A stretch of 64,000 nt of DNA from positions 15,554-79,553 of the forward strand of contig CAZLKF010000004.1 of assembly GCA_964560085.1 (NCBI GenBank), read 5' to 3'. Position numbers: made by a program. Source of the stretch: an uncultured Muribaculaceae bacterium (lineage in GTDB: Bacteria; Bacillota_I; Bacilli_A; RF39; UBA660). Shown piece after piece: positions 9,001-12,000 of this stretch (its first letter is position 1; each line of letters starts with the position of its first letter).

Positions 9001-12000
9001 AGAAAAATTTTGAAAGATATTTTTAAAAAATATTATGACAAAACGATAATTGTTGTTTCACATCGAAATAATAATCTTGATTTATTTGATCATCTAATAA
9101 ATATCGAAGAAGGGGTAATAACAGAGGATGTCACACGCAACAAATAAAATAATTCTTAATTGGTTAATTACCTTAACTCTAATATTTATCATATCAATTG
9201 CTTTTATTTTCTTCTATGAATATACTGATTATATTTATACATTTGGACAAACAGAAAACGAATATGTGAATGTTTATTTAAGTGATGAAGAAATAACAAA
9301 AATTTCAAATAAATTAAAGTATGAAAATAATTTGTTGGATTTTGAAGTTATTGAAGTTTCTAATAATTATATTTTAGTATCAAATATTTTAAAAAGAAAT
9401 GTGAAACTGAAATTTCCTTACAATCAAAACAGTTATATTTTAGAACTCTATATTGATATTGGAAAGACTACGTTGTGGCAGAAAATATATAATAAATATA
9501 TGAAAGGAATGGTATATTGATTCAACTAGAAGAAACTGAATTAAAATCAATAAATGCTGGGGCTATAAAATGGGGAATCCTTGGAATTGTTGGTGGAGCC
9601 ATAACATTTATAATCGGAATTATAGATGGTATTGTCAATCCAAGTAGGTGCCATATATGATCATGAACACCGAAGAAACAAAAAAAGTAATTGCTGGTGG
9701 GTTATCAGGAACACTTATTTCGGCAATTACAAAAGTATTTAGTACAATTTTTGAATTTGGACGTGCCCTTGGATCTTCATTAAGAAGAATTCGTGATAAA
9801 AAATCATGTTCACTATAAAATGATTATATCAAACAAAAAAAGGTAATTTTTTACCTTTTTTTATTTGATAATATTGCAATTTGTTAAAAAAATTGTTATT
9901 GTAATAGCGTAATTCAGTTGTGAGGTGTAAAATGCAAATAAAAACAAGCTCATTTGCTATAACGGATGAGATAATTAATGAAGAACTGCAAGAAGAGCAT
10001 ATACCACAAGAAAGAATGTTTCTGGAAAATATAAAATTAGTTTATTCACGTGTATTACAAAGATTTTATAAATTTCCAGTTGAATTTGAAGATTTAATAT
10101 CTTATGGAATGATCGGTTTAACAAAAGCAGTTAATAGTTATGATTCTACAAAAAATATTAAATTTTGTTCATATGCTGTAAGCTGCATTGATAATGAAAT
10201 AATATCATTTTTACGCTCAAGCAGAAGAATAATTAAACCAACGGAAATAAAACGAGAAAACTTAATAAAACCAATTGCTCCAATCGAGAATATTGAAGAT
10301 GAACAAGCAAATATTTATGAAACATTTGAACAAAAAGAAGAACTAGAAGCTTTAAGATATTGCATAGCAAGTCTACCATTAAAGCATCAAAAAGTTATAA
10401 GTCTTTATTATGGTCTAGCAGATAATAGATGCTATAATCAAAGAGAGATTGCCGAACTTTTAAACATTACAACTTCTGCTGTCCAAGGAATATTATCTAG
10501 AACAATTGAGGTTTTAAGAGCAAATATGTATAGTTTAGATAAAAAAGGAATAATGCAAAGAAAGATAAGAGATAATCATTTTTATCCAAAAAAATGAAAA
10601 AAATTACCAAAAAAACGCCTTTTTTCTTAGTTTTATAAAAAAAATGTTGTAAAACTTTGGTGAGAGTGATATAATTTTGGTAGCCAAGAAGGGAGGGATT
10701 TTATATGACAAAAGTAGTTGTGAGAAATGGAAACGTTGAAAGTGCATTACGTACATTTAAGCAAAAAAACATTAAAGATGGCCTCCTAAAAGAAGTAAAG
10801 AAGCGTGAATCTTACGTGAAACCTGGCGAAAAGAGACGAAATGCTAAAAAAGAGGCAATTAAAAATAGTCGTCGTAAAGAACGCACATATAACAGAGCTG
10901 CATAAGCTCTTTAATTTTATAGAAAAGAGGGAATTCATGAAAAGTAGAATATTGGAAGATTTAAAAAATGCCATGAAGAATCAGGAAAAACAAAAATTGT
11001 CAGTTGTAAGAATGCTTAAAGGCGCTGTTCAAATGGAAGAAATATCTAAGATGCGTGAATTAACTGATGATGAAATTATAGCTATTGTTGCAAAACAAAT
11101 TAAAACACGAAAAGAGGCAAATGTTGAATTTGAAAAAGCTTCTCGCAATGATTTAGTTGAACAAAACAATGCCGAAATTGAAATACTAAGCGTTTATATG
11201 CCTGCTCAGATGGATGAAACCGAAATAAACAAGATAATTGATCAAGTCTTCGCAAGTGTTAATCCAACTGGAGTAAATGATATTGGCAAAGTTATGAAAG
11301 AATTAGCTCCACTTGTTAAAGGTAAGGCCGATATGAGTTTAGTTAATTCATTAATAAAAAATCGTTTAGAAAGTTTATAATTGACAATATTAAATTTAAA
11401 TTATATAATTTTAACATAAAAGTGATGAAGAAGAAGAGTAAAACAATTTGTTTTAAAGAAAGTTAATGGTTGATGCAAATTAACAAACAAATTATTTGAA
11501 AGAAACTTTGGAGCTTAATTGCTAATCGCATTAAAGATTTTGAGGTGTAGAAATACACAAATTAAGGTGGTACCACGAAAATTCGTCCTTATGCGGATGA
11601 ATTTTTTTTATTGGAAAGGAAGATAGAAATGACTAGAAAAGAGTATAGTGAATTATTAGTCCCTAATGTTGAACATGATGTTGCATATTATGAGGCGAAA
11701 TATCCTGAACGCAATTTAGAACCAGGCGCCATGGTAACTCGTTTTGCCCCAAGTCCAACGGGATTTGTGCATATGGGAAGCTTGTATGCCTCATTTGTTG
11801 ATTTGCAAATGGCTAAACAATCAAATGGAGTAGTGATGCTTCGTATAGAAGATACCGACCAAAAAAGAGAAGTTGAAAATGGCATTGAAGGAATTATTAA
11901 CGATTTTAACAATTTAAATATTAAATTTGATGAAGGTCCTTCATATGGTGGTAATTATGGACCTTATGTTCAAAGTGAGCGAGGGGATATTTATCGTGCT

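Follow-up and report, generated by a model that had tools for sequence, protein, structure and literature searches.

A conserved operon of uncultured gut Bacilli that probably encodes a two-peptide bacteriocin with one cysteine in each peptide

Introduction

Two-peptide (class IIb) bacteriocins are recognized by two adjacent peptide genes in one operon, leaders of the double-glycine type, a dedicated ATP-binding cassette (ABC) transporter with a leader-cleaving peptidase domain, and a GxxxG motif in both peptides, with an immunity gene expected in the same operon (PMC2850506). The two peptides of lactococcin G are believed to dimerise as parallel helices through one GxxxG motif each (PMC2850506). 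The usual endings of double-glycine-type leaders are GG, GA and GS (PMC6363468). Most class IIb peptides are without cysteine, the intramolecular bonds of gallocin A having been called the first in the class, and the gallocin A immunity peptide, GIP, mimics the toxin peptides (PMC10100652). Here, we describe a gene cluster in a 64,000-nucleotide stretch of an uncultured bacterium labelled Muribaculaceae (GTDB lineage Bacteria; Bacillota_I; Bacilli_A; RF39; UBA660), namely positions 15,554 to 79,553 of contig CAZLKF010000004.1 in assembly GCA_964560085.1; this whole stretch is called the window below. The cluster holds two overlapping genes for short peptides, A and B, which a first-pass annotation of the sequence had proposed to be class IIb-type precursors, each with a lone cysteine through which the two could be joined. 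We consider it likely that the four genes of this cluster form one operon for an unmodified two-peptide bacteriocin.

Results

Two overlapping precursor genes and their exporter

The cluster lies on the forward strand in the order exporter, 130-amino-acid (aa) protein, peptide A and peptide B, followed by a putative terminator (Table 1). Peptide A consists of the leader MIQLEETELKSINAG and the core AIKWGILGIVGGAITFIIGIIDGIVNPSRCHI. Its leader places Leu at -12, Glu at -8, Leu at -7, Ile at -4, Ala at -2 and Gly at -1, and its core holds two GxxxG motifs (G8xxxG12 and G19xxxG23), Asp22 (9625-9627) and, as its sole cysteine, Cys30 (TGC, 9649-9651). TTG 9517 is the only standard start available to A after an in-frame stop at 9490-9492, and a Shine-Dalgarno sequence, AAAGGAA, sits 9 nucleotides (nt) 5' of it. 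Peptide B consists of the leader MIMNTEETKKVIAGG and the 38-aa core LSGTLISAITKVFSTIFEFGRALGSSLRRIRDKKSCSL, which has a net charge of about +5, the motif GRALGSxxRR, Arg21 (9762-9764) and a sole cysteine at position 36 (TGT, 9807-9809). Two junctions tie these genes to each other and to the gene before them: the stop codon of A (TGA, 9658-9660) and the start codon of B (ATG, 9657-9659) share an ATGA overlap, and the start of A forms a TTGA overlap with the end of the 130-aa gene.

Table 1 Features of the cluster, with positions counted from the first letter of the window
Feature	Coordinates	Strand	Description
Hairpin, then T-run	6999..7018	+	between rsmD (6326-6877) and the exporter gene; consensus scan and sequence
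Peptidase-containing ABC exporter (PCAT)	7084..9147	+	687 aa; C39, transmembrane and ATPase domains
130-aa protein	9128..9520	+	one N-terminal transmembrane helix; 20-nt overlap with the exporter gene, TTGA overlap with A
Peptide A precursor	9517-9660	+	47 aa, TTG start; 15-aa leader and 32-aa core
Peptide A leader	9517-9561	+	predicted cut after INAG
Peptide A hydrophobic core	9562-9657	+	family motif FIIGIIDGxxxPxxC
Peptide B precursor	9657-9818	+	53 aa, ATG start
Peptide B leader	9657-9701 or 9657-9698	+	predicted; cut after AGG or after AG, respectively
Hairpin (20-bp stem) between A and T runs	9827..9870	.	inverted repeat I10, 95% complementary

Both open reading frames (ORFs) read in the sequence as the first-pass annotation had described them, including the TTG start, the leader residues with Ala at -2, the 32-aa core and the two GxxxG motifs of A, the overlap of the two genes, and the one cysteine near the C-terminus of each core. 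That annotation had not said that FGRALG of B itself contains a GxxxG motif (G20xxxG24). Its description of a cationic B core with FGRALG stands, whereas the cut that yields 38 residues is questioned: because of the leader register (M-12, E-8, V-4) and the alignment with two relatives in which GG is followed by SLSG (L016) or SISGTLIS (L020), B may be cut after VIAG to release a 39-residue core starting GLSG. A scan of all six frames of the 64 kilobases for a leader plus a short core returned A, B and only one other match, which lies within a SpoVA protein. In addition, the codon differences between this locus and an 83%-identical relative (L005) number 29, 13 and 10 at third, first and second positions, respectively, and this third-position bias is the pattern of a coding region under purifying selection. 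These two results, and the place of the genes behind a C39-peptidase ABC exporter, speak against a chance pair.

The exporter matches the Pfam families Peptidase_C39 (4e-30), ABC_membrane (7e-26) and ABC_tran (2.5e-26). Its true start is ATG 7084, which has the ribosome-binding site AAGGGAGG and gives the 687 aa that gene callers also report, while the mechanical ORF runs from GTG 7012. Its nearest relatives in the PDB are PCAT1 (4ry2, 1.8e-88) and ComA (1e-83), and the catalytic triad is aligned in full as Cys (DCAV), His (NHYIV) and Asp (GDPA). Set beside the definition of class IIb (PMC2850506), the locus therefore presents two adjacent peptide genes in one operon, with the ATGA overlap and a shared putative terminator; predicted double-glycine-type leaders of 14-15 residues, that of B ending AGG; its own ABC transporter, with a peptidase domain of the kind that cleaves leaders; and GxxxG in both peptides, where G19xxxG23 of A and G20xxxG24 of B are invariant in 19-sequence alignments. 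No modification enzyme gene was found among the neighbours of the operon, which are all housekeeping genes, so that an unmodified class II peptide fits. A modified peptide (lanthipeptide, sactipeptide or glycocin) was considered and ruled out, as the cluster holds no gene for a modification enzyme.

A family of A and B peptides in gut genomes

A word-based search of 5.8 billion proteins returned one relative of A (P0001, 60% identity) and, for B, an exact copy (P0002, unnamed, in NCBI and Logan) as well as an 83%-identical protein (P0003). On the contigs of P0001 and P0003, the partner peptide immediately adjoins. Peptide A itself is not in that collection, presumably because its TTG start is missed by gene callers. 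The pattern FIIGI[FI]DG occurs at 13 loci in GTDB species genomes, all of them gut metagenome-assembled genomes (MAGs) labelled Bacilli, Mollicutes, Firmicutes or Erysipelotrichaceae with the exception of two Muribaculaceae and one Clostridium sp., and a scan of metagenomes for the same pattern added 10 further loci. An exhaustive hmmsearch of 1.84 billion cluster representatives, with a profile of A built from two sequences, expanded the A-type family to 272 clusters at E <=1e-3.

Every locus that was read with sequence on both sides carries a C39-ABC exporter, sometimes a single-pass protein of 134-163 aa, an A-type gene and a B-type gene, and A is paired with B in all 29 distinct pairs and in two fused gene calls. 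The fused calls, P0017 (102 aa) and P0124 (99 aa), hold the A and B precursors in one ORF with the second GG leader internal, and P0148 (190 aa) joins the single-pass protein to A; all three are either natural fusions or artefacts of assembly or frameshift. A further putative reading frame, rich in cysteine (for example ...GACCCVFAVTCCGVCCTGCCIT), was seen about 500 nt 3' of B at L015 (8666-8838) and at L023-L026, and its varying length among near-identical contigs suggests a variable repeat.

A search of the literature for the family motifs found no paper, the bulk lists of a gut class II mining study (PMC12648112) not being covered by it. From its sequences, we judge the family to be real, previously uncharacterised and of the class IIb kind. 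The proposal of a class IIb-type precursor pair, made from the window alone, gains support here from the C39 exporter with its intact triad, from the family-wide adjacency of A and B, and from the covariation at the GxxxG motifs described below.

Conserved motifs and covariation between the peptides

The cleavage dipeptide predicted for 142 short A-type representatives is GG in 127, AG in 11, GS in two, SG in one and GA in one. An AG ending also occurs in the B-type leaders of L015, L018 and L038. Since AG recurs in this way in 11 of 142 A-type and several B-type relatives, the Ala at -2 in A is most simply read as a recurrent minor variant of the family.

In a core alignment of 19 sequences, A is invariant at F-I-I-G-I-x-D-G and at the cysteine, and B at both glycines of GxxxG, the first arginine of RR and the cysteine. 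Across the 29 distinct pairs, the motifs keep a fixed spacing, GxxDGxxxPxxC in A and G(R/K/Q)xxG(x11)C in B, and the cysteine stands invariantly at +7 from the second glycine in A and at +12 in B. Exactly one core cysteine is present in 131 of the 142 A-type representatives, GxxxGxxxPxxC in 130, and the cysteine lies 1-2 residues from the C-terminus in 120.

Within the motifs, the Asp of A and the position of B occupied by Arg in the window vary together. Asp in A is matched throughout by Arg, Lys or Gln in B (22/22 pairs). In the pairs with another residue in A, His is found with Asp (L032) or Glu (L035) in B, Glu with Glu (L036), and Ala with Tyr (L033) or Val (L037); in L030, A has Lys and B keeps Arg with a Glu gained next to it, and in L034, A has Asn and B keeps Arg. 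This covariation gives a Fisher p of 1.8e-4, not corrected for phylogeny and calculated on a sample in which the partners of non-Asp A variants were chosen on purpose and hence not at random. A charge pair that swaps or vanishes on both sides is what a direct helix-helix contact would predict, and together with the invariant glycines this supports a GxxxG helix-helix heterodimer of the class IIb type.

The cysteines follow the same course. Both peptides of a pair have the cysteine in 28 of 29 pairs, neither has it in one, and no pair has it in one peptide only (p=0.03). The exception is the Cys-less A variant P0113, whose B partner ends before the cysteine position in two independent samples (L038 and L039), so that the two cysteines appear from these sequences to have been lost together in this lineage, which supports a joint role for them. 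A lone cysteine had been called unusual for class IIb; most peptides of the class are reported to have none (PMC10100652). The suggestion that the two cysteines bridge the peptides fares less evenly: a joint role is strengthened by the fixed spacing and the joint loss, and a disulfide as such would be an inference beyond that. With one cysteine per core, only an intermolecular bond would be possible in A and B. No interchain disulfide in a two-peptide bacteriocin was described in the literature searched.

The 130-aa protein, immunity and the operon boundaries

The protein encoded between exporter and peptides is a candidate for an accessory or immunity role. It has no Pfam family and matches the NCBIfam MAG1140 family weakly (E 0.0096; best 5.9e-5 among its relatives). 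Seven positional homologues gave only noise in Pfam, NCBIfam and PDB profile searches apart from the same weak MAG1140 match, and a word-based homologue search with the 130-aa protein returned just itself. Proteins of the same layout (134-163 aa) stand at the equivalent position in at least 12 related loci. A single-sequence AlphaFold model is poor (pLDDT 53.5) and places the transmembrane helix at residues 3-40. An HlyD-like accessory role was considered and set aside as an unsupported guess. The exporter, for its part, also matches the Mycoplasma model 'Mbov_0121 family peptidase domain-containing ABC transporter' (1.4e-75, under its cutoff), and the Mbov_0121 and MAG1140 models, both from Mycoplasma, are adjacent NCBIfam accessions (NF045998 and NF045999). 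As exporter and small protein match Mycoplasma models with adjacent accessions, a unit of the two may also be present in Mollicutes.

Loci that are without a protein of this type (e.g. L011 and L013-L018) show no immunity candidate at all. At four loci, a third, leaderless ORF directly follows B (L009:8298-8471, L012:1166-1339, L020:881-1048 and L028:3311-3460), with an N-terminal transmembrane helix that is followed by a GxxxGTF(I/L)R motif like that of B; three of the four ORFs also have a cysteine at the B-like +12 offset. By its sequence it looks like a membrane-anchored mimic of B, and the analogy with GIP of gallocin A, which mimics toxin peptides, makes an immunity function plausible. 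A B-like leaderless third ORF of this kind is absent from the window.

At the upstream edge of the cluster, the hairpin at 6999-7018 is likely the terminator of rsmD and would mark the module boundary; alternatively, it could be a leader or attenuator of the operon. A promoter-like site (TTGCCT-17-TATAAT with the TG of an extended -10, 6878-6906), which is a consensus-level candidate only, lies about 95 nt 5' of this hairpin, and the ribosome-binding site and ATG of the exporter follow. Downstream of B, the hairpin at 9827-9870 is read from its stem and flanking runs as a putative two-way intrinsic terminator closing the operon.

Genomic setting and host

The module is preceded by a gyrase/topo IV A-like gene, ylbD, ylbE and rsmD, and followed by a sigma-70-family gene, rpsU, yqeY and a T-box-controlled tRNA synthetase gene. 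The same site, (ylbD-ylbE-)rsmD, module, rpsU-yqeY, is occupied in the window, L011, L019 and L028, in species whose housekeeping proteins are about 50% identical, and rpsU and/or yqeY lie downstream of the module in many more loci; L033-L036 and L038 are likewise assigned to this site. No plasmid relatives (tblastn), no relatives on viral contigs and no repeats flanking the module were found, and a mobile origin was rejected on the same grounds. Because the site is conserved despite this divergence and plasmid or viral relatives are lacking, the module looks old and chromosomally inherited in a clade of uncultured gut Bacilli. Such stability at one site is unusual for a bacteriocin locus.

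The divergent sigma-70-family gene (9920-10597, +) stands directly after the putative operon terminator and covers regions 2 and 4. It is weakly SigK/SigE-like (103 bits, far under cutoffs), and its place between B and rpsU is peculiar to this species (L003 and L004 included), the gene being absent there in other loci. No histidine kinase or response regulator was found near the operon, and a quorum-sensing context was rejected for want of either gene nearby.

The host itself is, on gene content, a low-GC endospore-forming Gram-positive bacterium, given the sporulation genes at 274-3072 (spoIIAA with its STAS domain, the 3' part of a sigF-like gene, spoVAC, spoVAD and spoVAE) and an LtaS-like gene, also in the window; the GC content is about 27%. 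As an endospore former, it differs from what the 'Mollicutes' label on some related MAGs implies. The S21 protein of the window clusters with proteins labelled 'Erysipelotrichaceae bacterium', and the window proteins are near-singletons in a collection of 15 billion proteins. Elsewhere in the window, T-box leaders lie at 11416-11593 and 49136-49376, the first of them ahead of the class I tRNA synthetase gene (11611-13266), a tRNA gene lies at 13306-13379, and the ORF for ribosomal protein S2 (14638-15714, +; 358 aa) carries an unusual C-terminal Rho_N domain (residues 324-357, E 5.9e-9).

Discussion

Proposed mechanism and competing explanations

With reasonable confidence, we read the four genes as one operon that works in the following way. 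The C39 domain of the exporter would recognise the 14-15-residue leaders and cleave behind Ala-Gly in A and behind Ala-Gly or Gly-Gly in B, and the exporter would then secrete both cores. In the target membrane, the core of A, which is hydrophobic, and that of B, which is amphipathic and cationic, would pack through their GxxxG motifs as a parallel heterodimer, with the Asp of GIIDG in A paired with the Arg of GRALG in B at the interface. The parallel orientation follows from the position of both cysteines C-terminal of the motifs, provided that they interact. The cysteines (offset +7 for A, +12 for B) would come to lie on one side and cooperate, the simplest form of this being an interpeptide disulfide that locks a 1:1 complex. 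Like known class IIb peptides, this complex would permeabilise related Gram-positive cells, a membrane protein being the probable receptor.

Several observations weigh against this reading. For every family member, secretion and activity are predictions from sequence, and no known immunity family is present in the operon, where the single-pass 130-aa protein is the only candidate. The module occupies one conserved chromosomal site in species as diverged as their housekeeping proteins indicate, which is atypical for bacteriocins; these are usually strain-variable. The covariation test carries no correction for phylogeny and includes non-Asp variants that were deliberately picked, and the joint loss of the cysteines, at p=0.03, is that of a single lineage. 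As to the disulfide, the hosts are gut anaerobes, and on a simple helical wheel that assumes a continuous helix the B cysteine and the GxxxG face are about 160 degrees apart.

Some of these points bear on how the cysteines are used and leave the pair itself a two-peptide bacteriocin. In that case, which we regard as a serious but lesser possibility, the cysteines would not bridge A and B and would serve as free thiols, bind a receptor or a metal, or link A to A and B to B as homodimers. Lactococcin B is thiol-activated and needs a free thiol. Conservation and fixed spacing do not by themselves define the chemistry, the hosts live without oxygen, the operon holds no oxidoreductase gene, and on a continuous helix the B cysteine is off the GxxxG face. 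However, both cysteines lie C-terminal of the interacting motifs at invariant offsets, and independent roles would not predict the joint loss in L038 and L039 or the lack of any pair with a single cysteine.

The locus stability raises a different question, namely whether the exported pair is a weapon at all. It might instead be a signalling or physiological system, such as a pheromone pair or a membrane-active factor that serves the life cycle of its own host, for instance in sporulation. The shared site between ylbD-ylbE-rsmD and rpsU-yqeY in deeply diverged species would suit such a role, as would core motifs far more conserved than is usual in arms-race toxins, the lack of an identified immunity gene in the operon, and a spore-forming host with a sigma-factor gene directly after the operon in this species. 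Yet that sigma-factor gene is not conserved beside the module in other loci, neither histidine kinase nor response regulator is nearby, and cores of 32-38 residues with hydrophobic or amphipathic helices of transmembrane length and GxxxG are typical of pore-forming class IIb peptides and not of short pheromones, so that we think this explanation unlikely. More improbable still is that the exporter just happens to serve A and B as independent one-peptide (class IId) bacteriocins, or as one bacteriocin with an unrelated cargo. Many loci with double-glycine leaders do carry several unrelated precursors, but strict co-occurrence in a fixed order, translational coupling through ATGA, residues that covary at the GxxxG motifs and cysteines that are lost together all argue for one system of two peptides. 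The preferred reading therefore remains the two-peptide bacteriocin, exported and cleaved by its own C39 transporter.

Implications of the family

A bolder claim, which we put forward only tentatively and with more doubt than conviction, is that this would be the first class IIb family with an interpeptide disulfide and an Asp-Arg clamp in the GxxxG interface, and at the same time a near-core chromosomal module that is inherited vertically throughout a clade of uncultured, spore-forming Bacilli of the gut. A two-peptide toxin locked by a covalent bond would be a new kind of structural solution, provided that the disulfide is real. If the module is near-core and not a strain-variable weapon, its real role might differ from, or exceed, the killing of competitors.

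The GxxxG heterodimer model of class IIb rests on mutagenesis and on nuclear magnetic resonance of peptides studied singly, taken from just a few lactic acid bacteria. The present family provides hundreds of natural A/B pairs, with a covarying polar pair inside the proposed interface and cysteines that are kept or lost together, and with it the interface and orientation of class IIb heterodimers become directly testable. In addition, it marks a conserved and unannotated peptide-export module in abundant uncultured gut Bacilli, the A genes of which are often missed by gene callers, in the window owing to the TTG start.

Comparison with described systems

The exporter resembles those of PCAT1-CtA (Clostridium thermocellum) and ComA-ComC over a full-length alignment in which the catalytic triad is kept, and the leaders of A and B weakly resemble that of CtA, the PCAT1 substrate (E ~0.2, profile against PDB). 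Here, in contrast to those systems, the cargo is a pair of short, putatively membrane-active peptides, and the exporter gene is in translational coupling with the gene of a small single-pass protein.

Among class IIb bacteriocins with cysteines, gallocin A and the subgroup of brochocin C, thermophilin 13 as well as ABP-118, in which cysteines and disulfides are essential (PMC10100652), have long helical hairpins with two cysteines each and intramolecular bonds, whereas A and B have single helix-length cores with one cysteine each. Membership in this hairpin subgroup was rejected because of the one cysteine per core, which 131 of the 142 A-type relatives share. In the lactobin A/cerein 7B family (TIGR03949), a GG leader is likewise followed by a Gly-rich hydrophobic core, and PGAP names one relative, MDD4035894.1, 'class IIb bacteriocin, lactobin A/cerein 7B family'. 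Peptide A of the window nevertheless scores under the cutoff of that model (16.2 against 21.5 bits), and the model misses the FIIGxxDGxxxPxxC signature and the B partner entirely. The usual leader endings (PMC6363468) leave aside AG, which occurs in about 8% of the family leaders.

All weak profile matches of A-type and B-type peptides fall in two-peptide bacteriocin families. Of 15 A-type peptides, 13 match lactococcin G-beta/enterocin 1071B and 11 match lactobin A/cerein 7B, weakly to moderately (best 6e-8), and of 16 B-type peptides, 7 match lactococcin G-alpha/enterocin 1071A. The group of lactococcin G, enterocin 1071 and lactococcin Q (NF038034, NF038035, PF11632) shares with the locus an adjacent pair made up of a hydrophobic Trp/Gly peptide and a cationic-tailed peptide, leaders of the double-glycine type and, within the operon, a C39 ABC exporter of its own. 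At the level of scores, A falls under the lactococcin G-beta cutoffs (NF038034, 21.9 against 37 bits in NCBIfam; PF11632, 18 against 29.4 bits in Pfam), and B of the window gives no match to lactococcin G-alpha (NF038035). Core profiles of A and B aligned to lactococcin G alpha and beta with hhalign reach a probability of 0.06-1.4%, the beta reference being identical to its PDB chain and the alpha reference differing from its own chain at two Met/Leu positions, and an hmmsearch with full-precursor profiles did not recover lactococcin G in the PDB. The weak NCBIfam and Pfam matches probably rest largely on the leaders, and membership in the lactococcin G family was rejected on the dissimilar core profiles (hhalign <2%) and the scores under cutoffs. 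The organisation differs as well, in that the gene order is reversed with the beta-like peptide first, the exporter precedes the peptides, no LagC-like immunity gene is present, and A and B have one cysteine each where the lactococcin G peptides have none. Taken across these likenesses and differences in sequence, the pair appears to work like lactococcin G without being a member of its family.

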